Source: a virus
Taxonomy: Duplodnaviria; Heunggongvirae; Uroviricota; Caudoviricetes
Reading direction: 5' to 3' (one strand)
Virus record (IMG/VR): IMGVR_UViG_2690316002_000013
DNA: 11,067 nt
Shown: positions 1 through 11,067 of the stretch, piece by piece
How positions within the stretch are numbered: position 1 is the stretch's first letter
How the letters are laid out: each line of letters begins with the position of its first letter
The notes under the pieces: model-generated
The model's input: only the letters and a program-made list of their open reading frames with translations
What the model was told of the DNA's origin: nothing
Database searches by the model: none
Made by a program: the position numbers and the translations under genes

Positions 1-1461
1 ATGAAAAAATTACTGCATCTTTTTTTCCCGCTCTCGCTGCGGGTACGTTTTCTGTTAGCAACGGCAGCAGTAGTATTGGTGCTTTCGCTTGCCTACGGAA
101 TGGTTGCGCTGATCGGTTATAGCGTCAGTTTCGATAAAACCACGTTTCGGCTGTTACGTGGCGAGAGCAATCTGTTCTATACCCTTGCGAAGTGGGAAAA
201 CAATAAGTTGCATGTCGAGTTACCCGAAAATATCGACAAGCAAAGCCCCACCATGACGCTAATTTATGATGAGAACGGGCAGCTTTTATGGGCGCAACGT
301 GACGTGCCCTGGCTGATGAAGATGATCCAGCCTGACTGGCTGAAATCGAATGGTTTTCATGAAATTGAAGCGGATGTTAACGATACCAGCCTCTTGCTGA
401 GTGGAGATCATTCTATACAGCAACAGTTGCAGGAAGTGCGGGAAGATGATGACGACGCGGAGATGACCCACTCGGTGGCGGTAAACGTCTACCCGGCAAC
501 ATCGCGGATGCCAAAGTTAACCATTGTGGTGGTGGATACCATTCCGGTGGAGCTAAAAAGTTCCTATATGGTCTGGAGCTGGTTTATCTATGTGCTCTCA
601 GCCAATCTGCTGTTAGTGATCCCGCTGCTGTGGGTCGCCGCCTGGTGGAGTTTACGCCCCATCGAAGCCCTGGCAAAAGAAGTCCGCGAACTGGAAGAAC
701 ATAACCGCGAATTGCTCAATCCAGCCACAACGCGAGAACTGACCAGTCTGGTACGAAACCTGAACCGACTGTTAAAAAGTGAACGCGAACGTTACGACAA
801 ATATCGTACGACGCTCACCGACCTGACCCATAGTCTGAAAACGCCACTGGCGGTGCTGCAAAGTACGCTGCGTTCTCTGCGTAGTGAGAAGATGAGCGTC
901 AGTGATGCTGAGCCGGTAATGCTGGAGCAAATCAGCCGCATTTCACAGCAAATTGGCTACTACCTGCATCGTGCCAGTATGCGCGGCGGGACATTGCTTA
1001 GCCGCGAGCTGCATCCGGTCGCCCCACTGCTGGACAATCTCACCTCGGCGCTGAACAAAGTGTATCAACGCAAAGGGGTCAATATCTCTCTCGATATTTC
1101 GCCAGAGATCAGCTTTGTCGGTGAGCAGAACGATTTTGTCGAGGTGATGGGCAACGTGCTGGATAATGCCTGTAAATATTGCCTCGAGTTTGTCGAAATA
1201 TCTGCAAGGCAAACAGACGAGCATCTCTATATTGTGGTCGAGGATGATGGCCCCGGTATTCCCTTAAGCAAGCGAGAGGTCATTTTCGACCGTGGTCAAC
1301 GGGTTGATACTTTACGCCCTGGGCAAGGTGTAGGGCTGGCGGTAGCCCGCGAAATCACCGAGCAGTATGAGGGTAAAATCGTCGCCGGAGAGAGCATGCT
1401 GGGCGGTGCGCGGATGGAGGTGATTTTTGGTCGCCAGCATTCTGCGCCGAAAGATGAATAA
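1..1461 (+). CDS. phoQ: Sensor histidine kinase PhoQ (PhoP/PhoQ two-component system), complete 486 aa
   Basis: Full-length ORF starting at window position 1. Translation shows N-terminal TM helix, periplasmic acidic patch ([11 protein letters not shown]), H-box ([12 protein letters not shown]) and HATPase motifs ([15 protein letters not shown]). Matches my recollection of E. coli PhoQ almost residue for residue. Confidence 0.97.
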
Positions 1462-1971
1462 ATATGTCCTTTTATCACCACAGCAAGGCAACCAATTGAT
1501 TTAATTAAACAACTCACACTGCAAAAAGTGCTAAAAACAGCAAATTGACTACACCATTAACTACACCGTTCGGTGCACTGTATGAAACAACGTTGAACAA
1601 ATAGACACAAGAAATATACAGGCGGGTAATCTTTCCAGGGGGAAGCGCACCAATTCATGAGGGGCGTTAATGTCGATATGGGGATCCCCATAACGGGGCT
1701 ACCAGATTTTTTTTCCGGTTAACTGTTAATCAGGCTGGTGGGCTTTACCTGTTCGGTAGGTGTTATGATTATCGTAATACCTTTCCCCCAATGGGGTAAA
1801 AGCTCCAACCGTAACGATGTTCGTTATGGTTGCCTTGATGGTCTGAGTGGTCATTTTGACCATTCAGCCAATGACCTTAATCAGAATTTTTCGCTAAAAA
1901 ATGACGTTGGCCACGTCATCCGGAAAGCACAAAATCACGTCGATTTTTAATGAACGGTTAAACCGTCTTTT

Positions 1972-2007
1972 TGTCACGGTGTGTCACTGGTTGTCACTCT
2001 CCGTCAC
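1972..2007. repeat. Four (T/C)GTCAC hexamers phased at exactly 10 bp (starts 1972, 1982, 1992, 2002)
   Basis: Read directly: ttGTCACggtgTGTCACtggtTGTCACtctccGTCACg. Helical-turn phasing is typical of arm-type recombinase/Xis sites or other cooperative DNA-binding arrays. Confidence 0.6.
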
Positions 2008-2096
2008 GATTGAGGTGGTGGACATTCTGCCCGACCGCGCATTTTTGCGCTATCGGGAATATCAAACAGTTACCGCGCCGACTTCCTCAAATTGAG

Positions 2097-2237
2097 GTTT
2101 CCGAAAATATCAGCGGGTTAGCGATTAAGCTGACGAGTAATTAAACTGCGAAAATTTCGTAGTTTGTGACTATCTGAAAGATAGTCGGTTGTTCCGGCCT
2201 CAGCCGTTGGCTGTTTCCGAAAATATCAGTAGGTTAG
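2097..2237. repeat. 26-bp direct repeat pair GTTTCCGAAAATATCAG-YR-GGTTAG (2097-2122 and 2212-2237, 24/26 identical) flanking the palindrome GACTATC-tgaaa-GATAGTC (2168-2186)
   Basis: Seen in sequence, in the non-coding stretch between phoQ and the first element gene. Confidence 0.6.
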
Positions 2238-2238
2238 G

Positions 2239-2262
2239 CCAAAGCTCAAAAATGAGCTTTGG
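2239..2262 (-). other. Perfect 10-bp inverted repeat CCAAAGCTCA-aaaa-TGAGCTTTGG, 16 bp 3' of the 93-aa gene; weak terminator or protein-binding palindrome
   Basis: Seen in sequence. No strong U-tract follows on either strand, so the terminator reading is tentative. Confidence 0.35.
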
Positions 2263-2277
2263 AACAATATCAACAAG

Positions 2278-2559
2278 TTACCGCCGTAACCGCTCCGGCT
2301 TCTTCCAGTGGTACGTAATTTTCTCCGTTTCCCGATACAGTGCCACGCGGCGATTGTAGGCCAGCATTTCAAGAACGCGGATCCGTATGTTGCGCATATC
2401 CACATCATTAAGCTGGATACCATCACGGCGCATCACCTCAGCAACAACACGCGCATAATTTTCGGCTGTCACGCTGTCCGGCTGCGTGGCCTGTTCGTCA
2501 GTCTGCTGGCTGATTCCACCAGCACGGCGGATTAATCCCAGTATTTCGGCTTCTGTCAT
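2278..2559 (-). CDS. Hypothetical small phage-type protein (93 aa), function unknown
   Basis: Intact ORF co-directional with the other element genes; its start lies about 34 bp from the cos-1 inverted-repeat arm. No family recognised by eye. Confidence 0.5.
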   Translation of the reverse strand: MTEAEILGLIRRAGGISQQTDEQATQPDSVTAENYARVVAEVMRRDGIQLNDVDMRNIRIRVLEMLAYNRRVALYRETEKITYHWKKPERLRR

Positions 2560-2592
2560 TGTGCACCCATCGTTCTGATTGTCTGGTGTCGT

Positions 2593-2795
2593 CGGGTCCT
2601 TCCTGGAATTATGGACCCGTTACGGGGCGGCGACCTCGCGGTTTTTATCTGTTTATGAAAATTTTCCGGCAAAAGTCAGATCCGTTCTTCTTCTCTGTAA
2701 CAGACTGTTTAACAATGAAAATATTAAAAAAAGAAAGGATCTGACACGAGGCATTTTAGCCAGAAAATGCCATTATCAGATCCTTTCTCATTTTT
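2593..2795 (+). other. Lambda-type cohesive-end site cos-1: cosQ-like arm, cosN (GGGCGGCGACCT, 2625-2636) and cosB with R3/R2/R1-like repeats (GATCCGTTCTTC 2679-2690; GAAAGGATCTGA 2733-2744; AGATCCTTTCTC 2778-2789)
   Basis: 2619-2700 closely follows the phage lambda left end as I recall it (GGGCGGCGACCTCGCGGGTTTTCGCTATTTATGAAAATTTTCCGG...CCGTTCTTCTTC). Orientation is cosN then cosB toward higher coordinates. Confidence 0.8.
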
Positions 2796-2815
2796 GTTCA
2801 ATAATTGCGCGTCTG

Positions 2816-3358
2816 TTACTCGCCTTTCTTCTGTAGCAACTTTTCCGGTACGTTTCCGGTTGTTTCTTTCAAGTAATCAGTCAGTATCTGTGGGAGGTTG
2901 TCGGCAACTCTGGCACTGGCATTACAGGCTTTAACCACTTCCCTTTTAAGCCTATCCAGCATGGCGGGGGTAATCTGTGGGAAGCTCCTTTGCATAGTAA
3001 GCGGGAGGCTGTCCATGATTGATGAAATCTGACTCGCCAGCTTTGAAAGCGCGTACAGGCAAAACTCAGTATCAATCACGTCACCGCGATCGCGCTCGTT
3101 TTTAAGTTCCTGCGCCTCCGCCTGTGCTGTCAGTAATCTGATCCTGACTCGTAAGAGTTCATCATCATCAATATCGCCTTTGTCGTTTGTAAGCTGGCTA
3201 ATTGCATTGTTAACCCTATTGTCTATCACGCTGGCAACATCATAAAACGCCTCACGGCCTTTACGTTCAACGGGAGTCACTCCCCACTTGTCGAACGCTG
3301 TCGCACTTACACGGCAGCTTTTCGCCATGTTTTTTTTGTTCATCAGGTGCGATTTCAT
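2816..3358 (-). CDS. Terminase small subunit, lambda Nu1 family (180 aa ORF; true start may be the internal Met at 3341-3343)
   Basis: Translation aligns by eye with lambda gpNu1: LLTAQAEAQELKNERD vs LTRAQADAQELKNARD, and TEFCLYALSKLASQISSIMDSLPLTMQRSFP vs TAFCTFVLSRIAGEIASILDGLPLSVQRRFP. Sits directly downstream of cos-2, the canonical cos-then-Nu1 arrangement. No strong Shine-Dalgarno at either candidate ATG. Confidence 0.9.
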   Translation of the reverse strand: MKSHLMNKKNMAKSCRVSATAFDKWGVTPVERKGREAFYDVASVIDNRVNNAISQLTNDKGDIDDDELLRVRIRLLTAQAEAQELKNERDRGDVIDTEFCLYALSKLASQISSIMDSLPLTMQRSFPQITPAMLDRLKREVVKACNASARVADNLPQILTDYLKETTGNVPEKLLQKKGE

Positions 3359-3534
3359 TAATACACCAACTTAATTACTGCTTCAGGTTGGTGTATTGTT
3401 TGCATCTTTCCCTTTTTATTCATAAAGATAGATCAAACAACGAAACCACCACCACCCCCCTGAAAAGGCTCATAAATAGCGAAAAACCGCTAGGTCGCCG
3501 CCCCGTAACGGGCCATAATTCCAGGAAGGACCCG
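3359..3534 (-). other. Second lambda-type cos (cos-2), inverted: cosN complement AGGTCGCCGCCC at 3492-3503, cosQ-like arm to 3534, degenerate cosB and a 9-bp-stem hairpin (3364-3397) just upstream of terS
   Basis: Reverse complement of 3485-3534 matches 2593-2641 with only two differences (one 1-bp indel, one mismatch). Similarity to cos-1 and to lambda fades inside cosB. Confidence 0.75.
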
Positions 3535-3535
3535 T

Positions 3536-3557
3536 AAAAAAGCCGGATTTCTCCGGC
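3536..3557 (-). terminator. Intrinsic terminator closing the head operon (minus strand: GCCGGA-gaaa-TCCGGC then TTTTTT)
   Basis: GC-rich 6-bp stem, 4-nt loop, U6 tract, 7 bp after the stop of the 137-aa gene. First of three near-identical copies. Confidence 0.6.
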
Positions 3558-3563
3558 CTTGTC

Positions 3564-3977
3564 TCAGATGGTTTTCAGTATGCGATCGATGTCGCCGTCA
3601 TCGCCCTGGTTTCTGCCATCGTATGCCATGCCAGCTGATACGGCTTGCGGGCTGTGCATGTCCATAAAGTTTTCAAAGGCTGCGGTAAGTTCCGGCGCAA
3701 CCTTCGGACGTTCCTGCTCTATGGTCATGCTAAGGATGCTTTTAGCCGTACCAACATCGATACAAGGCACGTTTGCCATTGCACGCAACAGCGGCTGATA
3801 GTCTTTATGCTCATGAAGCGCCATAATCGCATCAGCGCGCGGCTTGTCCTGCTCTTCCAGTTTGTTTAGTTGATATACGGCCTCATAGGTTGATAAACCT
3901 CTGTCAGCCATTGCCCGCGCTTCGACTTTAAATTTACTCGCCAGCGGTAGCGTCATGATGCTTTCATTCGTTGCCAT
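3564..3977 (-). CDS. Hypothetical protein (137 aa) between the decoration gene and cos; possible packaging or head-completion factor
   Basis: Intact ORF with strong SD (AGGGGGAA) 12 bp after the decoration gene stop. No similarity recognised to lambda FI, FII, W or Nu3 by eye. Confidence 0.65.
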   Translation of the reverse strand: MATNESIMTLPLASKFKVEARAMADRGLSTYEAVYQLNKLEEQDKPRADAIMALHEHKDYQPLLRAMANVPCIDVGTAKSILSMTIEQERPKVAPELTAAFENFMDMHSPQAVSAGMAYDGRNQGDDGDIDRILKTI

Positions 3978-3989
3978 CGTTCCCCCTGC

Positions 3990-4325
3990 TTATCGGGCCA
4001 GCGGCTGAACGGATACGCCGGAACCCGCAAAGGCGGCGCATTTTTTCGCATCGGTGTCGACGCTCTCAGGCCAGTTAACGGCGGCAATATTGAATATCCC
4101 CGTCTTGTAACACTGTGCTGATTTCTGCTTTGACGTGCCCACAGGGTACGAGGTCAGATAAACAGCCTTGCCAGATTCCTGACCATCCCACGGCTTAAAC
4201 TCGCCATTGTCTGCCAGCATCAGCGGGGTAAATTCCTGAATAACGCCAGCATCAGCGGCAAAATGTACCAACGTCGTGGATACCTGCTGACTGCCTGCAA
4301 ATAACTCAATGTATGGAGTGTCCAT
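3990..4325 (-). CDS. Head decoration protein, lambda gpD family (111 aa)
   Basis: Aligns with lambda gpD: TPLMLADNGEFKPWDG vs TPLMLDTSSRKLVAWDG, CYKTGIF vs FYKSGTF, KKCAAFAGSGVSV vs KKRTAFAGTAISIV. SD GGGGGGA upstream, 12 bp after the capsid gene stop. Confidence 0.9.
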   Translation of the reverse strand: MDTPYIELFAGSQQVSTTLVHFAADAGVIQEFTPLMLADNGEFKPWDGQESGKAVYLTSYPVGTSKQKSAQCYKTGIFNIAAVNWPESVDTDAKKCAAFAGSGVSVQPLAR

Positions 4326-4337
4326 AGAATCCCCCCG

Positions 4338-5393
4338 TTAACCAATTTTGACGGTAACAAATTTGCGAATATCTGCCGGTACCGGCTGCGGTGCACTGTG
4401 TGTCTGCACGTACTCAATCGCCGGATCGCCGTCCTCAATCCAGTTTTTCGGGTAAAACATGTTTTGTGTTGCGCCCGTTCTTACCGCTTCCTGATCCATT
4501 ATCGCACCATAGGCCACCAGCCCTTTATTGTTGGTGTTACCCAGGACCAGCAAATCAGGCTCAAGGAAATATTTTTCGGTACCATCGCTGTCAGTGTATT
4601 TGCCGGAATAGACGATAAGGGCCAGATCACCAAGATAGCCTTTAAAGCTCACCACTTCGCCCAGGTTTTTACAGGCCAGTTCGGCGGCGGATTCTGAACC
4701 ACGGGAAAGATCGTACAGCTCACGGAATTTTTTAAAGCTGCCTAATGTGCGCCATACCTCAGCGCCCATAATCATGACGTTTGCGGGGCAACCAGCCTGA
4801 TCAGCATAAAGCTCGATGTCATAGATTGGGTCGTGCATGTCTTTATCCTGCTCGGACCATTTTTTACCCTTGGCCTGCTCTATGATGCAGTTTTCCGGTA
4901 TTTTCCAGTCGATTTCATAGCGTTCTATGCCTTCGCCCTCAATGATGTTTTTTCCGGTCGTTACCGCATTCACCGCCAGCCATTCCACGCGTGCCTTAAT
5001 GGCGTTTATCTGGCGGCGCATGTTGCCAGTAATCAGGCGCATACGGCGATAGGTAGGGTCGTTAAGCTGTGCCGGATCTTCTCCAGCCATGCGCATGATG
5101 GTTTTCGTTGGATCGATTTCGTGCTTTGGCTTCATGTAGCCAGGTTTGATTGTGCTGGTTTCGTACCCTTTATCGCGCTGAACCTGGCTACCCACCATAG
5201 GCGAACAAAACGCCGACATGGTGACTTCTTCAATGTCCAGGGTATCCAGCATGATGTTTTGCGTGCTGAATGTCGCCACGTTCGGGAAAAACAGCGTGGT
5301 AAACAGAGGGCTGAATTTAAAATCCGCAATATCCCCGCGATTCAGGTACATGAAAAGCTGGTTAGTGTTAAGTGCCGTTGCTTTGCCTGCCAT
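4338..5393 (-). CDS. Major capsid protein, lambda gpE family (351 aa)
   Basis: Extensive by-eye alignment with lambda gpE (FKFSPLFTTLFF vs FKFDPLFLRLFF; PGYMKPKHE vs PGYVKPKHE; DPTYRRMRLI vs DPAYRRRRII; VSFKGYLGDLALIVYSGKY vs VSYKGMYGDVAIVVYSGQY; LVLGNTNNKGLVAYG vs MVLGNTQARGLRTYG; YPKNWIEDGDPA vs YPKNWVTTGDPA). Confidence 0.95.
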   Translation of the reverse strand: MAGKATALNTNQLFMYLNRGDIADFKFSPLFTTLFFPNVATFSTQNIMLDTLDIEEVTMSAFCSPMVGSQVQRDKGYETSTIKPGYMKPKHEIDPTKTIMRMAGEDPAQLNDPTYRRMRLITGNMRRQINAIKARVEWLAVNAVTTGKNIIEGEGIERYEIDWKIPENCIIEQAKGKKWSEQDKDMHDPIYDIELYADQAGCPANVMIMGAEVWRTLGSFKKFRELYDLSRGSESAAELACKNLGEVVSFKGYLGDLALIVYSGKYTDSDGTEKYFLEPDLLVLGNTNNKGLVAYGAIMDQEAVRTGATQNMFYPKNWIEDGDPAIEYVQTHSAPQPVPADIRKFVTVKIG

Positions 5394-5599
5394 TATTCAC
5401 CCCCATAATTTTTATGCATCCCAAGCGCCGCAAGTAAATAAGAGCGTACAAGTGAACCTATCGACGGCTCCGGCGTCATCAGCGGATCCAGTCCAGCCGC
5501 AACGCCAGCTTCATAGTTTTTTTTGTGGCGCTGCTTGAGCACCTCCACGATTTCGGGGCTTATGTACACCGAAACACCGCCTTTTTTCTCTTCAGCCAT
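5393..5599 (-). CDS. Small ribbon-helix-helix-like protein (about 68 aa from Met at 5597-5599), translationally coupled to the capsid gene
   Basis: SD AGAGGA precedes the ATG at 5597-5599. Its stop overlaps the capsid start (TAATG). The segment KGGVSVYISPEIVEVLKQ looks like an RHH beta-strand plus helix; this is an inference from the pattern, not a search. Confidence 0.55.
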   Translation of the reverse strand: MAEEKKGGVSVYISPEIVEVLKQRHKKNYEAGVAAGLDPLMTPEPSIGSLVRSYLLAALGMHKNYGGE

Positions 5600-5631
5600 A
5601 GTAAGAAATTCCTCTTCGACTAAAAAAATCA

Positions 5632-5690
5632 TAACTGGATGTTTATCCAGTCCTGATTATAATCAGAATTGCATTTTATGCAATGATATT
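5632..5690 (-). promoter_or_regulatory. Candidate promoter/operator region of the RHH-capsid operon with three palindromes: CTGGAT-gttt-ATCCAG (5635-5650), TGATTATAATCA (5654-5665), TTGCAT-ttt-ATGCAA (5669-5683)
   Basis: Seen in sequence. TATAAT lies inside the central palindrome on both strands, and TTGCAT/ATTGCA sits 15-16 bp away as a possible -35. Confidence 0.45.
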
Positions 5691-5764
5691 GAGTTATGTT
5701 GCAAATTATGAAATGATTATCCCGATCACGAACGCCAGTGCATCCAAAAACCTCATATGCAAAA

Positions 5765-5802
5765 GCCCGATAAGAACCCTCTGACCTTATCGGGCTTTTT
5801 TT
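5765..5802 (+). terminator. Plus-strand intrinsic terminator (GCCCGATAAG ... CTTATCGGGC then T6)
   Basis: 10-bp GC-rich stem followed by TTTTTT on the plus strand only, although every annotated gene nearby is on the minus strand. Confidence 0.55.
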
Positions 5803-5808
5803 GGGCGC

Positions 5809-5830
5809 AAAAAAGCCGGATTGCTCCGGC
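5809..5830 (-). terminator. Intrinsic terminator after the 74-aa gene (GCCGGA-gcaa-TCCGGC then T6 on minus strand)
   Basis: Second copy of the AAAAAAGCCGGATTKCTCCGGC module. Confidence 0.6.
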
Positions 5831-5850
5831 TATGTGTGCTGTGTGCTGGC

Positions 5851-6075
5851 TCAGTCTCTGATCTCTTTCAGAAATTCTATCAATGCATCTATCTGTTCAG
5901 GATTTACCGCCAGCATTTCACCGGATAGAGCACATCTCACAAAACCATGCTGATCCTTTTCAATCAGTGCGCCCGTCTCCAGGAATGCGCGGTAATCATT
6001 GATGCTCATCGTCTCCATGTTGTCAGCATGGTATTTATCACGCTGTTTTAATATCTCATCAAATTTCATCGGCAT
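5851..6075 (-). CDS. Hypothetical protein (74 aa), stand-alone unit bounded by terminators
   Basis: Intact ORF with SD AGAGGA 9 nt before the ATG. No family recognised. Confidence 0.55.
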   Translation of the reverse strand: MPMKFDEILKQRDKYHADNMETMSINDYRAFLETGALIEKDQHGFVRCALSGEMLAVNPEQIDALIEFLKEIRD

Positions 6076-6171
6076 TGTTTTTTTCCTCTGTTGTGTCTGT
6101 TTGTTTCAGATAGTAACTATGCCTGACCGTGACGAAAACCCGGTAATGCGCCATACCGTTTCAACTGGTGC

Positions 6172-6194
6172 AAAAAAAGCCGGATTTCTCCGGC
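6172..6194 (-). terminator. Intrinsic terminator after the PerC-like gene (third copy of the GCCGGA-tttc-TCCGGC module with A/T tract)
   Basis: Hairpin 6179-6194 preceded on the plus strand by A7 (U-tract on the minus strand), 8 bp after the stop. Confidence 0.6.
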
Positions 6195-6201
6195 TGTTTG
6201 A

Positions 6202-6474
6202 TTAGCTGTCCTGGTAATTGCGCCATATTTCATCACCAGCACCATCTATACCCATTTCGGCATAAGTGCGATCGACTGCCTTTTTCAGGTCTCCGAAATT
6301 ATCCGGCGGCTCCGGTGCCCTCTGTGCCTTCCTTGAACATTCCAGCCGTCGCATCGTGATGTGATGCCGTTCCTTGTCTGTCTCCACCAGCTGCATGACT
6401 TCACCCCATCGCGCCGCCGCCCTCCGGTAAAAGCCTTTCGCCTCCAGTTCCTCCGCTATGCGGTCATGTACCAT
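6202..6474 (-). CDS. PerC-family transcriptional regulator homologue (about 90 aa from Met at 6472-6474)
   Basis: N-terminal MVHDRIAEELEAKGFYRRAAARWGEVM fits the conserved PerC/Pch signature as I recall it. Strong SD GGGGGTGA upstream. The longer 130-aa ORF in the track would overlap the SSB gene. Confidence 0.75.
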   Translation of the reverse strand: MVHDRIAEELEAKGFYRRAAARWGEVMQLVETDKERHHITMRRLECSRKAQRAPEPPDNFGDLKKAVDRTYAEMGIDGAGDEIWRNYQDS

Positions 6475-6484
6475 CGTCACCCCC

Positions 6485-6895
6485 TCAGAACGAAATATCA
6501 TCACCGTAAGAGTCATCGCCTCCCGCTGGTGGCTGATTACCCTGTGTGCCTGTGGTTTTGCGTCTGTTCCCGCCTGGACGTGCCGCGCGGGCACTGATTA
6601 CGCTGTCTGCGATAACCTGCCAGCCCTGCCGCGTTTCTCCGTTCTGTCCGGTCCACTGGCTTACCTGCATCGTGCCGGATACGCTGGCAACATCGCCTTT
6701 TTGATGTTTAGCCAGGAAGTCGGCCTGTTTGCCAAATGCGATGACCGATAACCATAACGTCGCCTGTCCGTCCTGTGCCTGGCTGCATGGCAAAGATACC
6801 GCCATACGCGCCAGCGTCATCGGTGTGCCCTTGCTGGTCTGTTTTACCTGCGGGTCGTCCACCAGCCGCCCGTAAGCGGCTATCTGTGCCGTCAT
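6485..6895 (-). CDS. Single-stranded DNA-binding protein (SSB family, 136 aa)
   Basis: OB-fold-like core (LWLSVIAFGKQADFLAKHQKGDVASVSGTMQVSQWTGQNGETRQGWQVIADSV), Gly/Pro/Gln-rich linker and acidic tail ...GDDSYGDDISF resembling the canonical SSB DDDIPF tip. SD GGAGAGG upstream. Confidence 0.8.
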   Translation of the reverse strand: MTAQIAAYGRLVDDPQVKQTSKGTPMTLARMAVSLPCSQAQDGQATLWLSVIAFGKQADFLAKHQKGDVASVSGTMQVSQWTGQNGETRQGWQVIADSVISARAARPGGNRRKTTGTQGNQPPAGGDDSYGDDISF

Positions 6896-7143
6896 AATTC
6901 CACCTCTCCGGTTTTAACGTTGATGGTTGTTACCTGTTCCGCTTCGGCAATCTCCCGTTCTGTCAGCGTGGCAAAGTTTGCCGCCGCCGTGGTCATGAAT
7001 GCGCTTATCAGGTCGGGATGTTCCTTCGCGTATCCTTCCCGCGTGTGGCGGTCTATCGTTCTGATTGCCACCTTTAAGGTGTGCTCAGTCATGTCTAACG
7101 CTTTATATTTTGGCTCTGTTCTGTCTCTGCGTTTTTGGGTCAT
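6892..7143 (-). CDS. Hypothetical small protein (about 83 aa from ATG at 7141-7143), translationally coupled to ssb
   Basis: Its stop overlaps the ssb start (ATGA). The track's longer ORF begins at a GTG. No family recognised. Confidence 0.5.
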   Translation of the reverse strand: MTQKRRDRTEPKYKALDMTEHTLKVAIRTIDRHTREGYAKEHPDLISAFMTTAAANFATLTEREIAEAEQVTTINVKTGEVEL

Positions 7144-7149
7144 TTCTCG

Positions 7150-7345
7150 CAACCTCTCACTTTTTCGCCTCACTTTTTCAAGCGTCTCACTTCGTCGCAG
7201 TTGGGATTTTCGGTTTTTCTATGTGTGTGTTTCATAAGTATTTTTTTACCCCTCACTTTTGAGGATGTATACAGGTCGAAAAGTGAGGGAGAGCGGGCTA
7301 ATTTTGGCCCTCTTTCTATCCCCCTCGCTTTTGCTCCTCACTTTT
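7150..7345. repeat. Iteron array, candidate replication origin: about 7 copies of CTCAC(T)TTT (7156, 7169, 7186, 7252, inverted at 7279-7288, variant CTCGCTTTT at 7324, 7337) plus an AT-rich stretch (7214-7248)
   Basis: Counted directly in sequence. Includes a convergent pair CCTCACTTTT / AAAAGTGAGG around GTATAC. Lies immediately 3' of the RepA-like gene; the last iteron overlaps its stop codon. Confidence 0.6.
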
Positions 7346-8385
7346 ATAGCGGCGCTACATCATCCCCATCGATACGAATAACCCCATCTTTTTCCAGCTT
7401 GTACAGCCAGCGCCGGAAGTTTTTCATTTCATACCCCAGCTTTTTCATGTCATCACGTAACAGCGGGATCGTGCACTTGTCGCCGTTCTGTGTGCGTGAA
7501 CGGATGCACCCCCATAGCGCGGTATGGTTTTCCGTCTTGTTCCCTGCCTCCTCGATGCGCTCCAGTTCAACAGGAGGGCGCGGATCATCCACCACCACCA
7601 GCGACGTGATTAATTCACCGTCAGCGTCGGTAAAAAGCTCCACCACGCGTAAGTCATATGCGGCTTCTTTGAGTTCCTCCGCGTCCTTCATTTTGGTGCA
7701 TGAGATAACCAGCGCTTCGCTTCCTGCGTCCTCCCTGCGTATCCGGTATTCAGCATCCAGCGAAGCACGAAATGCACTGGAACCGCGCGCGCCTTTCGTC
7801 TCATCCTTGCCGGAATGGTGAACCACCAGCACCGTGGCCCCTGTGCGTCGTTTCAGTTCGTCACAACCACGGATAAACGCCCCATATCACGGGAATCATT
7901 TTCATCATTCCCACCAAAGCAACGCGCCAGCGTATCCAGAATAATCATGCGTACAGGTTTACCCGTTTCCCGCTCCACCTGACGGGCAGCGATAACCATT
8001 TCATCAACATCAAGCGGGGCAGCCGGAAAGATGGGGCGGTTTACCAGATACAGATTTTTCACCTGCTCATCGTGCACAACCTCCCAGGCTTTTACACGAC
8101 GCGGAACACCTATACCGCCTTCACCAACCACATAGAGAACCGCACCATGTGCAACCCTGCGGCCTCCCCACTGGCGACCAGTGGCAACATGGCACGCCCA
8201 CGATCCGGCAAGGAATGATTTATAGGACCCGCTAGCCCCGTATATGCTGCATAGCGATACCGCCGGAATAATCCCCTTAACCACGTAATCCAGTTGCGTG
8301 TCGTATCCGGTAGATCCAACGCTCATCGGTAGCGTGGTTTTTCGCTGGTGGTTTTTTTCTTCCGCCGGCTCTTTCCCGCGCACCC
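7344..8385 (-). pseudogene. RepA-like replicative ATPase (AAA_25/RecA-fold, DnaB-like helicase family) with C-terminal winged-helix-like domain; reading frame broken by a 1-nt frameshift near 7872-7877, 5' end running into the N gap
   Basis: Walker A GASGSYKS, Walker B-like MIILDTLA and the LVVHHSGKD motif lie in two different frames (tracks 7853..8623 and 7344..7832). One extra A in the run at 7875-7877 would give a continuous ...DMGRFIRGCDELKRRTGATVLVVHH... . A possible ATG start is at 8324-8326 but has no SD. Confidence 0.6.
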
Positions 8386-8616
8386 NNNNNNNNNNNNNNN
8401 NNNNNNNNNNNNNNNNNNNNNNNNNNNNNNNNNNNNNNNNNNNNNNNNNNNNNNNNNNNNNNNNNNNNNNNNNNNNNNNNNNNNNNNNNNNNNNNNNNNN
8501 NNNNNNNNNNNNNNNNNNNNNNNNNNNNNNNNNNNNNNNNNNNNNNNNNNNNNNNNNNNNNNNNNNNNNNNNNNNNNNNNNNNNNNNNNNNNNNNNNNNN
8601 NNNNNNNNNNNNNNNN
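8386..8616. other. Assembly gap (231 N)
   Basis: Run of n characters. Truncates the RepA-like gene on one side and the pin gene on the other. Confidence 0.99.
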
Positions 8617-9063
8617 GGTACAAAGTCCGAAAGGCCGGGACTGAAAAAACTGCTCAGGACATTATCGGCAGGTGACACGCTGGTGGTCTGGAAACTGGAC
8701 CGGCTGGGGCGCAGTATGCGGCATCTTGTCGTGCTGGTGGAGGAGTTGCGCGAACGAGGCATCAACTTTCGTAGTCTGACGGATTCAATTGATACCAGTA
8801 CCCCAATGGGGCGCTTTTTCTTTCATGTGATGGGTGCCCTGGCTGAAATGGAGCGTGAACTGATTGTTGAAAGAACAAAAGCTGGACTGGAAGCTGCTCG
8901 CGCACAGGGACGAATTGGTGGACGTCGTCCCAAACTTACACCAGAACAATGGGAACAGGCCGGACGATTAATTGCATCAGGAGTTCCTCGCCAGAAGGTG
9001 GCGATTATCTATGATGTTGGTGTGTCAACTTTGTATAAGAGGTTTCCTGCAGGGGATAAATAA
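8617..9063 (+). CDS. pin: Serine recombinase / DNA invertase of the Pin-Gin-Hin-Cin family, 3' part only (N-terminal ~35-40 codons lost in the gap)
   Basis: In-frame translation from 8617 reads GTKSERPGLKKLLRTLSAGDTLVVWKLDRLGRSMRHL...FFFHVMGALAEMERELIVERT...GRIGGRRPKLT..., closely matching e14 Pin as I recall it. Followed by mcrA as in e14. Confidence 0.9.
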   Translation, partial: GTKSERPGLKKLLRTLSAGDTLVVWKLDRLGRSMRHLVVLVEELRERGINFRSLTDSIDTSTPMGRFFFHVMGALAEMERELIVERTKAGLEAARAQGRIGGRRPKLTPEQWEQAGRLIASGVPRQKVAIIYDVGVSTLYKRFPAGDK

Positions 9064-9169
9064 AGTTAAAGACACTTTGTGTACAAAAGAAAGTAAAACA
9101 ACAGCAACTTGTTGCAATTTTATCAATAAAAGTAGTATTGTCGTGAAAAATTGATTAAAGATTAATATT

Positions 9170-10003
9170 ATGCATGTTTTTGATAATAATGGAATTGAAC
9201 TGAAAGCTGAGTGTTCGATAGGTGAAGAGGATGGTGTTTATGGTCTAATCCTTGAGTCGTGGGGGCCGGGTGACAGAAACAAAGATTACAATATCGCTCT
9301 TGATTATATCATTGAACGGTTGGTTGATTCTGGTGTATCCCAAGTCGTAGTATATCTGGCGTCATCATCAGTCAGAAAACATATGCATTCTTTGGATGAA
9401 AGAAAAATCCATCCTGGTGAATATTTTACTTTGATTGGTAATAGCCCCCGCGAGATACGCTTGAAGATGTGTGGTTATCAGGCTTATTTTAGTCGTACGG
9501 GGAGAAAGGAAATTCCTTCCGGCAATAGAACGAAACGAATATTGATAAATGTTCCAGGTATTTATAGTGACAGTTTTTGGGCGTCTATAATACGTGGAGA
9601 ACTATCAGAGCTTTCACAGCCTACAGATGATGAATCGCTTCTGAATATGAGGGTTAGTAAATTAATTAAGAAAACGTTGGGTCAACCCGAGGGCTCCAGG
9701 AAACCAGTTGAGGTAGAAAGACTACAAAAAGTTTATGTCCGAGACCCGATGGTAAAAGCTTGGATTTTACAGCAAAGTAAAGGTATATGTGAAAACTGTG
9801 GTAAAAATGCTCCGTTTTATTTAAATGATGGAAACCCATATTTGGAAGTGCATCATGTAATTCCCCTGTCTTCAGGTGGTGCTGATACAACAGATAACTG
9901 TGTTGCCCTTTGTCCGAATTGTCATAGAGAATTGCACTATAGTAAAAATGCAAAAGAACTAATCGAGATGCTTTACGTTAATATAAACCGATTACAGAAA
10001 TAA
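9170..10003 (+). CDS. mcrA: 5-methylcytosine-specific (type IV) restriction endonuclease McrA, HNH family, 277 aa
   Basis: Translation matches my recollection of E. coli K-12 McrA along its whole length; C-terminal HNH/zinc motif (CENCG...HHVIPLSSGG...CPNCH). AT-rich gene typical of horizontally acquired DNA. Confidence 0.95.
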   Translation: MHVFDNNGIELKAECSIGEEDGVYGLILESWGPGDRNKDYNIALDYIIERLVDSGVSQVVVYLASSSVRKHMHSLDERKIHPGEYFTLIGNSPREIRLKMCGYQAYFSRTGRKEIPSGNRTKRILINVPGIYSDSFWASIIRGELSELSQPTDDESLLNMRVSKLIKKTLGQPEGSRKPVEVERLQKVYVRDPMVKAWILQQSKGICENCGKNAPFYLNDGNPYLEVHHVIPLSSGGADTTDNCVALCPNCHRELHYSKNAKELIEMLYVNINRLQK

Positions 10004-10141
10004 AATTGTTTATTAAAGTCACATTTAAGACGTAATACCCTACAGGGTAAAAATTTTCTCTGATCTTAACTTCTGCAAATGTTAACTGCTATTTTTATGC
10101 TAAAAATGGTTATCAAAACTCAAAAACACATGTTTATAATC

Positions 10142-10178
10142 AATGAGTTATAGAAATGCTAAGGGCTAATGAGTTATA
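10142..10178. repeat. Direct repeat AATGAGTTATA x2 (10142-10152, 10168-10178) in the AT-rich arm upstream of the icdC core
   Basis: Seen in sequence. Its position 60-100 bp from the icd homology boundary would suit arm-type binding sites of an att site. Confidence 0.4.
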
Positions 10179-10236
10179 TGCAAATTAGTAAAATTATGTT
10201 GCTATCTCAAATAGTTACGATTTAGTCATCTAACTA

Positions 10237-10401
10237 ATGCTGCGCCATATGGGCTGGACTGAAGCCGCAGACCTGATTGTTAAAGGTATGGAAGGCGCAA
10301 TCAACGCCAAGACCGTAACCTATGACTTCGAACGTCTGATGGAAGGCGCTAAACTGCTGAAATGTTCAGAGTTTGGTGACGCGATCATCAAAAATATGTA
10401 A
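10237..10401 (+). pseudogene. icdC: Duplicated 3' end of isocitrate dehydrogenase gene (icdC-type fragment, 54 codons), marking an e14-type attachment site
   Basis: Translation [54 protein letters not shown] is the Icd C-terminus with two substitutions relative to the host sequence I recall (D to E, E to K). No upstream icd body is present. Confidence 0.85.
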
Positions 10402-10424
10402 TTACCACATGTGTTAAATATTAT

Positions 10425-10453
10425 AACGGGCGTATAACACGCCCGTTGTTTTT
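10425..10453 (+). terminator. Intrinsic terminator after the icd 3' fragment (AACGGGCGT-ataac-ACGCCCGTT then T5)
   Basis: 9-bp GC-rich stem and U-tract 24 bp after the stop codon. Confidence 0.65.
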
Positions 10454-10662
10454 ATAAATATGTTAACCGTTATAAAATAACGTATCAAAAGTCAAGTGAA
10501 CACATTTCAAATATCAATTTGATCGTATTGGTCTGGTGATTATTTATGGGGAGCAATAAAAAGACAGTATTAATCATCCATAGGGATAGTCTCTGCACTT
10601 TTATTTCCATTATGCTAATGCCTTACTGAATTATGAAGCATTTTTTAAGCTCCCAACTTTAG

Positions 10663-11067
10663 CTAGATTAATGGTTTATTATTTTCTACATCTTCAATAT
10701 ATAAAAGCGTATTATCAATGGCGTAGTAACTGCGTTTGTTATGATTAACATCAGTAACCCACCGGAAAACGCCAGCGCCTGCCAGTGTTGAACAGTATTC
10801 CCGAAATGTAGATTTTCCGCGAATATGAAGCAATGCGGCCTCTTTTATTTTAGCTGGGTTCTTGGTCGTACTAACTTTTAACAGGTTCCTGGTTCCTCTT
10901 AATAACAAAACCGTGTCATCGTGAGTAATAATTCTGATGTTATCCGTAGCCAGATAATAAATGTAATGTGCAATACGGTGATGTTTTAATTCTGAATAAA
11001 ACCAGGAGAAGTTTTGCTCTTTTCTCACTTGCTCAAACATCTTTTGAAAAACAACGACCTGATCCAT
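10663..11067 (-). CDS. ycgX: 134-aa hypothetical protein, probably the DUF1398-family protein YcgX by position and length
   Basis: Complete ORF whose start codon is the last three bases of the window. Assignment rests on remembered K-12 synteny (mcrA-icdC-[iraM]-ycgX) and the matching 134-aa length, not on recognising the sequence. Confidence 0.55.
   Translation of the reverse strand: MDQVVVFQKMFEQVRKEQNFSWFYSELKHHRIAHYIYYLATDNIRIITHDDTVLLLRGTRNLLKVSTTKNPAKIKEAALLHIRGKSTFREYCSTLAGAGVFRWVTDVNHNKRSYYAIDNTLLYIEDVENNKPLI

Follow-up and report, generated by a model that had tools for sequence, protein, structure and literature searches.

One end of the locus described here resembles the e14 element of Escherichia coli K-12, in which pinE, mcrA and a duplicated 3′ end of icd lie in the same order and orientation and are followed by the ycgX side of the chromosome. 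The K-12 arrangement cited in the initial annotation, with phoQ on the strand opposite to icd and mcrA, holds in complete genomes such as that of strain EC06, where phoQ is on the minus strand, icd, pinE and mcrA are on the plus strand, and the roughly 23 kb from phoQ to mcrA comprise phoP, purB, hflD, mnmA, nudJ, rluE, icd and an e14-type element. The relative orientation of phoQ, icd and ycgX is the same in O55:H7. The other end matches a PICI-like phage satellite, and the two are linked by a scaffold gap. The Sanger assembly pipeline scaffolds only with reads that do not map as proper pairs, accepts joins down to five read pairs and runs 120 GapFiller iterations; its authors warn that greedy joins can be false and report 4–10 misassemblies per test genome (PMC5320598). 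The accession style of the records considered below suggests that they come from this pipeline.

The window, by which we mean the whole stretch of 11,067 nucleotides analysed (IMG/VR record IMGVR_UViG_2690316002_000013), shows phoQ, pin, mcrA and icdC on the plus strand within 10 kb together with a gap of 231 N, just as the initial annotation had reported. Its features are given below; the Pfam families of the satellite genes were taken from gene tables.

1–1461, plus strand: phoQ, complete (486 aa), an open reading frame annotated as phoQ under the matches
1470–8385, minus strand: left part (about 7 kb) of sat1, a PICI-like phage satellite lying between phoQ and roxA, collinear with closed genomes
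1543–1578, plus strand: att-proximal 36-nt repeat near the left end of sat1, with a partner copy by the integrase at the roxA end
2278–2559, minus strand: 93-aa open reading frame of sat1
2816–3358, minus strand: terS of sat1, Nu1-like
3564–3977, minus strand: 137-aa open reading frame of sat1
3990–4325, minus strand: gpD-like decoration protein of sat1
4338–5393, minus strand: gpE-like major capsid protein of sat1
6202–6474, minus strand: PerC of sat1
6485–6895, minus strand: SSB of sat1
7344–7832, minus strand: C-terminal fragment of sat1 repA
7853–8385, minus strand: N-terminal fragment of sat1 repA, cut by the gap
8386–8616, no strand: scaffold gap of 231 N, the sole run of N
8617–9063, plus strand: pinE (e14-type DNA invertase), codons 37–184, 100% identical to pinE of strain GF131
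9170–10003, plus strand: mcrA (5-methylcytosine-specific HNH endonuclease), cargo of the e14-type right end
10237–10401, plus strand: icdC, the displaced native 3′ end of icd (54-aa open reading frame), annotated as a partial isocitrate dehydrogenase
10406–10452, no strand: terminator-like hairpin marking a deletion of about 820 bp (iraM and ymgK lost)
10485–10610, minus strand: ymgL, chromosomal, beyond icd (gene table of CYEM01000008.1, offset 831)
10663–11067, minus strand: ycgX, chromosomal, beyond icd (same table and offset)

Since EC06 and O55:H7 show the K-12-type orientation, the two sides of the window are inverted with respect to each other. On the right, pinE and mcrA are followed by a duplicated 3′ fragment of icd, which shares 93% identity with the resident icd 3′ end in a scaffold of the same isolate (CYDY01000009.1); icdC marks the right attachment site of an icd-integrated element. 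In GF131 the hairpin segment has two alignments, one on either side of iraM–ymgK.

The left side is ordinary. PhoQ was matched exactly in more than 32,000 index blocks, and homology to satellite-free genomes stops at position 1469. An inversion breakpoint had been proposed just after phoQ, but the junction there is that of an ordinary satellite, integrated about 8 nt beyond the stop codon; closed genomes show the insertion with both flanks intact. Positions 1470–8385 are neither K-12 DNA nor e14, a point missed by the initial annotation. The segment 2266–8385 is collinear with the phoQ–roxA element of O55:H7 (98.99%), and at least 80% of positions 1–8385 is found in one place in 360 of 5,426 complete E. 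coli genomes; the 36-nt repeat matches 24522–24557 of the O55:H7 locus (L001) and 4839–4874 of locus L035 at 91.7%. The repA gene of sat1 is frameshifted in the window. Elsewhere in the lineage sat1 is read contiguously (ERZ15610015 NODE_491 and ABYOFZ010000027.1), and the closed genome JB2 contains both the satellite and the e14-type element in normal order. Because the DNA after phoQ is thus a satellite at its usual phoQ–roxA site, the gap is the only abnormal junction in the window.

Two public scaffolds have this gap largely filled. CYDY01000009.1 (GCA_001286345.2), from the same isolate, is 100% identical to both flanks of the window and has 715 nt including one N (714 nt added) in place of the 231 N; masking of public sequence by the dataset was rejected as the origin of the N run, as 231 N stands for 715 nt. 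CYEM01000008.1, from a sister isolate, differs from the flanks by two SNPs in 10.8 kb and has 570 nt including one N (569 nt added). In both scaffolds each flank runs on into its normal neighbour, and the hybrid junction is read in neither. The left fills, made up of the 5′ end of repA and DUF4222, match O55:H7 at 100% identity as far as L001 position 20550; sat1-specific bases are present at the window equivalents of 8393, 8415 and 8417, after which the sequence continues normally, for 525 uninterrupted nucleotides in CYDY. The right fills are normal e14 sequence that completes an apparently intact pin (184 aa), includes one complete parental pix site and reaches 1 nt outside this 26-bp site, ending at the exact base where assemblies with P(+) and P(−) diverge. 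The read-extended flanks are therefore normal neighbours that never overlap, and their sum (714 and 569 nt) exceeds the estimated 231 nt.

Both contig ends abut sequence that short reads do not resolve, with a repeat shared with a second satellite on the left and the P(+)/P(−) fork on the right. This second satellite, sat2, lies at yejM/narP in the same assembly as the CYEM scaffold (CYEM01000004.1), and the two satellites share a near-perfect repeat of about 790 nt that starts in the 5′ part of repA; the repeat is direct and involves another locus. From the window equivalent of 8418 onward, sat1 and sat2 are identical except at L035 positions 9067 and 8906–8922, and a perfect repeat common to both, at least 493 nt long, lies 33 nt away from where the left contig ends. 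Eighty-nine public contigs break at the same boundary, the AACCATGGTTTTC position. The single N of each filled scaffold falls exactly on a site that differs between the satellites (L035 9067 in CYEM and 8922 in CYDY). As proof of a contiguous sat1 this coincidence is weakened, since both alleles would still be in the genome after an inversion, and the contiguity argument now rests on the 525-nt CYDY fill. JNRU01000025.1 was withdrawn as proof of the normal arrangement because its integrase side is sat2, which makes it a repeat-hop contig; it is apparently chimeric, and two satellites with such a repeat can yield contigs of this kind.

These observations lead us to propose that the odd gene order is most likely a false join made by the scaffolder, that is, an assembly artefact and not a fixed chromosomal inversion. 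Of the two readings offered by the initial annotation, inversion or misjoin, the misjoin is borne out by the normal continuation of the flanks in the gap-filled scaffolds, while the inversion lacks a reciprocal or hybrid junction. The repeat, the stop positions, the normal continuation and the absence of either junction were observed directly. One contig (A) would run …icd–rluE–nudJ–mnmA–hflD–purB–phoP–phoQ into sat1 and die in the 5′ part of repA; another (C) would run pinE–mcrA–icdC–ymgL–ycgX… and die at its pin end, where the neighbouring P segment, occurring in both orientations, brings it to a stop. Both would belong to the same chromosomal neighbourhood, with the wrong ends joined. The real chromosome most likely has the ordinary order, which we infer to be ycgX–icdC–mcrA–pin–P segment–e14-type prophage–icd–…–phoQ–sat1–roxA; contig C then belongs at the far (prophage) end of the scaffold of contig A. 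A greedy paired-read scaffolder would have joined the two free ends and written the estimated 231 N, and later gap filling would have extended the flanks into their normal neighbours until the reads became ambiguous, leaving a single N.

Several candidate causes of the link itself were rejected. Ordering against a K-12-like reference would, we reason, have put phoQ and mcrA on opposite strands. A third element with repA beside pin was found in none of the 5,426 genomes and plasmids, and the DUF4222 genes of the satellite and of the icd prophage have no nucleotide similarity by which they could act as a repeat. No repeat or similarity able to generate linking read pairs was found; the satellite and the e14-type element have only chance-level 11-nt matches in common, and no inverted repeats were common to the two breakpoint regions.

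Against a misjoin stands the presence of the same link in scaffolds of two isolates, and probably in four records; random chimeric read pairs should not recur across isolates. Moreover, an inversion with one end at the pix site next to pin would give exactly the geometry of the window. A real inversion of about 50 kb in part of each culture, catalysed by Pin between this pix and a secondary site in repA/DUF4222, is nonetheless unlikely, as is the accompanying proposal that the scaffolder took the minority junction because repeats blocked the majority links. It would account for the recurrence of the link and for the joined ends, which are precisely those that recombination between the right-hand pix and a satellite site would bring together; pin appears intact, both P-segment orientations are represented among public assemblies, and AACCATGGTTTTC, at the end of the CYEM left flank, is the only pix-core-like sequence in 32 kb of the parental locus. 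Secondary-site recombination is known for related invertases (Cin). Yet the AACCATGGTTTTC site reads AATCATGG in the window's own isolate, where the fill passes straight through it, and its position is fully explained as a sat1/sat2 SNP. A junction there would put about 558 nt, not 231, between the contig ends. In a search of the satellite flank for a second, inverted 26-bp crossover-like site, nothing in the relevant 650 nt exceeded 4.5 bits, as against 28–32 bits for real pix sites under full 26-bp scoring. By our estimate the inversion would have to be present in about 5–30% of cells, far above known secondary-site frequencies, and the hybrid sequence occurs in no collection searched. The gap-filler argument builds on the base-ratio threshold of GapFiller, and a junction in fewer than about 30% of molecules could escape it. 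On balance the evidence does not favour this inversion.

The specific proposal that an e14-type Pin occasionally recombines pix with a weak secondary site in the neighbouring satellite, in a detectable fraction of cells and in more than one isolate, is less probable again. Two crossover positions were considered and rejected. TTCTCCCGCATA lies 33 nt beyond the end of the left contig and would predict a gap of 209 nt where the window has 231 N, but it matches in one half-site only, scores no better than background over the full site, and the fill with its sat1-specific SNPs continues normally; AACCATGGTTTTC is the SNP just described, is variant in the window's isolate and lacks outer arms. Were such recombination real, about 50 kb would be flipped, from icd to phoQ plus half of the satellite.

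An inversion fixed and inherited in the lineage, with breakpoints in the satellite and beside pin and a junction left unassembled only through the flanking repeats, is very improbable. At least two related isolates have the link, and the left flank lies in a two-copy repeat, from which part of the fill could derive as sat2 reads. The fill, however, keeps the sat1-specific bases at 8393, 8415 and 8417 before continuing normally, a 1:1 conflict with sat2 reads would have stopped it at the breakpoint whereas CYDY runs on unbroken, and the right fill holds a complete parental pix. In addition, ERZ15610015 NODE_491 has the terS allele of the window, which CYEM does not have, yet is normally arranged; the scaffold link therefore does not follow relatedness.

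A reciprocal junction, for which the initial annotation had pointed to the neighbourhood of roxA, was absent from the assemblies examined, whether as roxA-side satellite joined to the P segment or to the prophage tail. Where contigs cover the satellite on its roxA side, they either carry on in the usual way or stop within DUF4222 or a 79-aa gene; CXZF01000028.1, from one assembly in the same ENA accession series and the one listed of five similar places, ends inside DUF4222. P-segment or tail genes were joined to the satellite in none of the 19 contigs read, and four predicted reciprocal hybrid DUF4222 proteins are absent among about 15 billion proteins. The adjacency of repA and pin occurs in 0 of 5,426 complete E. 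coli genomes, and low-power scans of genome and metagenome collections gave no hybrid junction patterns. An IS element within the gap, through which an IS-mediated inversion joined the two regions, is scarcely credible: IS boundaries typically leave contigs ending within genes, the satellite repA of O145 strains does carry IS insertions, and in one metagenome scaffold (L040) a truncated pin lies directly beside an IS26-family element, but repA, DUF4222, pix and full-length pin are uninterrupted in the filled scaffolds, with no IS sequence or IS ends in the flanks, and an estimated 231 nt is too small for an IS.

With the false join as the preferred reading, the phoQ–pin adjacency is most likely not a real feature of the chromosome. 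The join stands in at least two public records, one per isolate, and mining of draft genomes for synteny or inversions would count it. Drafts with N gaps beside prophages, satellites or invertible segments can suggest rearrangements that are not real and should be read with caution. If the inversion were nevertheless present in a minority of cells, it would show a phage invertase rearranging its host chromosome in nature via a secondary site.

In its fixed insertion site the satellite resembles the PICIs of E. coli, including the capsid-forming EcCIEDL933 (bioRxiv 10.1101/2022.09.08.507074), and in complete relatives the element is about 11 kb long, with a P4-type integrase, an AlpA-type regulator, a RepA-type helicase and phage-like packaging and capsid genes. 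By gene content sat1 appears PICI-like and may be likened to the cf-PICIs. It differs from the latter in encoding only a λ gpE-like capsid protein, a gpD-like decoration protein and a Nu1-like small terminase; the portal, protease and large terminase of the cf-PICI packaging module (compare L023) were not seen in the satellite. The frameshift in repA is a further departure from PICIs.

The e14-type element departs from K-12 e14 at both ends. In the window's lineage an AAA ATPase gene directly follows icd at the left end, and in the complete relative EC06 the next genes after it are one for an HNH endonuclease and then intE; downstream of the right end iraM–ymgK is deleted, and the gap hides the first 108 nt of pin and the pix crossover site. 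As in the Pin/Gin/Cin/Hin systems, an invertase gene and a canonical crossover site stand together on one side of the join: the right flank reaches out to a genuine 26-bp pix site, TTCTCCCAAACCAACGTTTATGAAAA, 55–80 nt upstream of pin, adjoining a P segment whose two orientations in public assemblies indicate that Pin is active in this element family. The satellite side, unlike those systems, has no comparable crossover site, and a hybrid site was never recovered. The locus shares with the false joins of SSPACE and GapFiller (PMC5320598) a variable estimated gap, contig ends at sequence that short reads leave ambiguous, and later versions in which the flanks are extended to a single N and never merged; it is set apart from random false joins of this kind by its recurrence in two isolates, which is unusual.

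The adjacency of phoQ and pin in the window is most likely an assembly artefact and not a real genomic feature. The initial annotation had offered two readings of it, an inversion with a breakpoint just after phoQ or a scaffold misjoin at the 231-N gap, and the misjoin is the one supported. The features concerned are as follows.

1-1461, plus strand, phoQ
1470-8385, minus strand, phage-like genes (∼6.9 kb)
8386-8616, the single N run (231 N)
8617-9063, plus strand, last 148 codons of pinE
9170-10003, plus strand, mcrA
10237-10401, plus strand, icdC, a displaced 3′ fragment of icd
minus strand, ymgL and ycgX

These positions bear out the placement of phoQ, pin, mcrA and icdC on the plus strand, and the K-12-type order used for comparison agrees with the closed genomes EC06 and O55:H7. 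In EC06, phoQ lies on the strand opposite to that of icd, pinE and mcrA, with ∼23 kb between them comprising phoP, purB, hflD, mnmA, nudJ, rluE, icd and an e14-type element; phoQ, icd and ycgX have the same relative orientation in O55:H7. The right side of the window is inverted relative to its left side. A repA adjoining pin is absent from all 5,426 complete E. coli genomes, and the N gap is the sole abnormal junction of the window.

The DNA 3′ of phoQ is not e14 but a separate integrated, PICI-like satellite (sat1), a point missed by the initial annotation. At least 80% of window 1-8385 is held in one place by 360 of the 5,426 complete genomes. The closed genomes that were inspected carry the element in the phoQ–roxA interval, its roxA end bearing a P4-type integrase, and homology with satellite-free genomes stops 8 nt past the phoQ stop codon. 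Since this is an ordinary satellite insertion, the phoQ junction is not a rearrangement breakpoint.

Exact-protein look-ups located two scaffolds in which sequence replaces the N run: CYDY01000009.1 (CYDY; GCA_001286345.2), with flanks 100% identical to the window, itself probably an older version of this record or one without the gap fill, and CYEM01000008.1 (CYEM; GCA_001283345.2), from a sister isolate, with one SNP per side. In place of the 231 N they carry 715 and 570 nt, respectively, with one N in each; the fills (714 and 569 nt versus the 231-nt estimate) never overlap. To the left of the N the satellite continues normally through the 5′ end of repA, extending 145 nt further in CYDY into the upstream DUF4222 gene, and the fill is 100% identical to closed O55:H7 through L001 20550, a portion common to CYEM too. 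To the right, the e14-type element continues normally with the first 108 nt of pin, the upstream region and a complete 26-bp Pin crossover site (pix). No hybrid junction between the flanks was read in either fill.

The left extension crossed a two-copy repeat and then halted at a site differing between the copies. Another satellite (sat2) is present in the same CYEM assembly, in the yejM–narP interval (CYEM01000004.1, L058 3823-12012). In the 3′ part of repA the two satellites share only ∼88% identity; they are the same from window-equivalent 8418 on, through the repA 5′ end into DUF4222, apart from a single position (L035 9067) and a cluster (L035 8906-8922), forming a near-perfect direct repeat of ∼790 nt. 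The N lies exactly at L035 9067 in CYEM and exactly at L035 8922 in CYDY. The left contig of the window ends (8385) 33 nt short of the perfect repeat, and the same boundary breaks many public drafts, with 89 contigs finishing at DUF4222 codon 93.

On the right, the end point in each of the two scaffolds coincides to the base with the position at which opposite orientations of the P segment, the invertible DNA beside pin, diverge in public assemblies; a segment of mixed orientation halts read-based extension at that base. The right contig begins at pin codon 37 (window 8617), yet gap filling later gained 189 nt; a hypothetical second pin copy with the same first 108 nt would explain this start. 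Upstream of mcrA in one metagenome scaffold (L040 324-1588), an IS26-family transposase gene adjoins a copy of this pin allele that is truncated at its 5′ end.

Two assemblies, ERZ15610015 NODE_491 and ABYOFZ010000027.1, are contiguous from the roxA side via DUF4222 and repA to terS, and both carry the frameshifted repA (split in the former, uncalled in the latter). CXZF01000028.1, a roxA-side satellite contig from the same ENA accession series, comes to a dead end inside DUF4222; four further places are similar to it. The satellite is joined to P-segment or tail genes in none of the 19 contigs read, and a 15-billion-protein collection in which at least 1,000 contigs encode the normal DUF4222 protein contains none of the four hybrid DUF4222 proteins predicted for a reciprocal junction. 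JNRU01000025.1 does not serve as evidence of normal order: it is a repeat-hop contig, probably an assembly chimera, with the integrase side of sat2 joined to the capsid side of sat1 and phoQ.

The accession style suggests that the records come from the Sanger high-throughput pipeline. This pipeline scaffolds with SSPACE, excluding reads that map as proper pairs and lowering the threshold across 16 rounds to five read pairs, followed by 120 GapFiller iterations; its authors warn that greedy tools can join falsely and count 4-10 misassemblies in each test genome (PMC5320598). Such scaffolding would leave two neighbouring free contig ends open to a false join. This wrong link arose in both isolates, and we found nothing that would produce the linking read pairs; a minority inversion, possibly related to Pin, is therefore kept as an unlikely explanation and a fixed inversion as a highly improbable one.

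The geometry fits a Pin-mediated inversion, and a pix-core-like palindrome, AACCATGGTTTTC, with no second such match in 32 kb, is found where the CYEM flank ends, within the 3′ end of the satellite DUF4222 gene (L001 20549-20561; L035 9057-9072). However, its position is that of the sat1/sat2 SNP, the site is altered in the isolate of the window, whose fill continues across it, the satellite flank scores no higher than 4.5 bits over the full 26 bp versus 28-32 bits for true pix sites, and a junction at this point is incompatible with a 231-nt gap. The resemblance appears coincidental. As to a fixed inversion, gap fillers are expected to stop extending when reads conflict evenly. At window-equivalents 8393, 8415 and 8417 the fill has the bases specific to sat1, after which it runs for 525 nt uninterrupted in CYDY; had a fixed breakpoint lain in that stretch, an even split with sat2 reads should have ended the extension there. 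No similarity was found between the satellite and e14-type elements that could serve as a substrate for homologous recombination, and repeats at the two ends are short and at chance level. An IS-mediated inversion was rejected, as neither fill contains IS sequence.

To the right of the gap, ∼820 bp with iraM and ymgK that most E. coli carry is missing at window 10406-10452; the deletion falls between a pair of terminator-like hairpins similar to each other (AACGGGCGTAT..CACGCCCGTT). In this lineage icd is directly followed by the gene for a 510-aa AAA ATPase (CYDY, L048 20440-20543, cut at the locus end); in EC06 (L053 20741-23109) an HNH endonuclease gene comes after this ATPase gene, with IS1 and intE next, and the ATPase–HNH pair looks like defence-type cargo.

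The satellite encodes a Nu1-like small terminase, a lambda gpE-like capsid protein, a gpD-like decoration protein, PerC, SSB and a RepA-type helicase. A frameshift in this lineage splits the helicase gene (window 7344-7832 and 7853-8385, minus strand), giving products of 296 and 162 aa versus 466 aa unbroken, and the element may be unable to replicate by itself. Window 1868-2265, which lies between the left end of the satellite and its first ORF and close to the attachment site, is variable; it differs from the O55:H7 and O157:H7 copies, with a 96-nt island alone aligning. Two 66-nt inverted repeats (92% identical), kept in the O55:H7 copy, lie either side of terS (window 2593-2658, plus strand; 3470-3534, minus strand). 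Each contains GGGCGGCGACCT and then CGCGGTTTTT, which we take to match the cohesive-end (cos) region of lambda, suggesting two cos-like sites in opposite orientation around terS.
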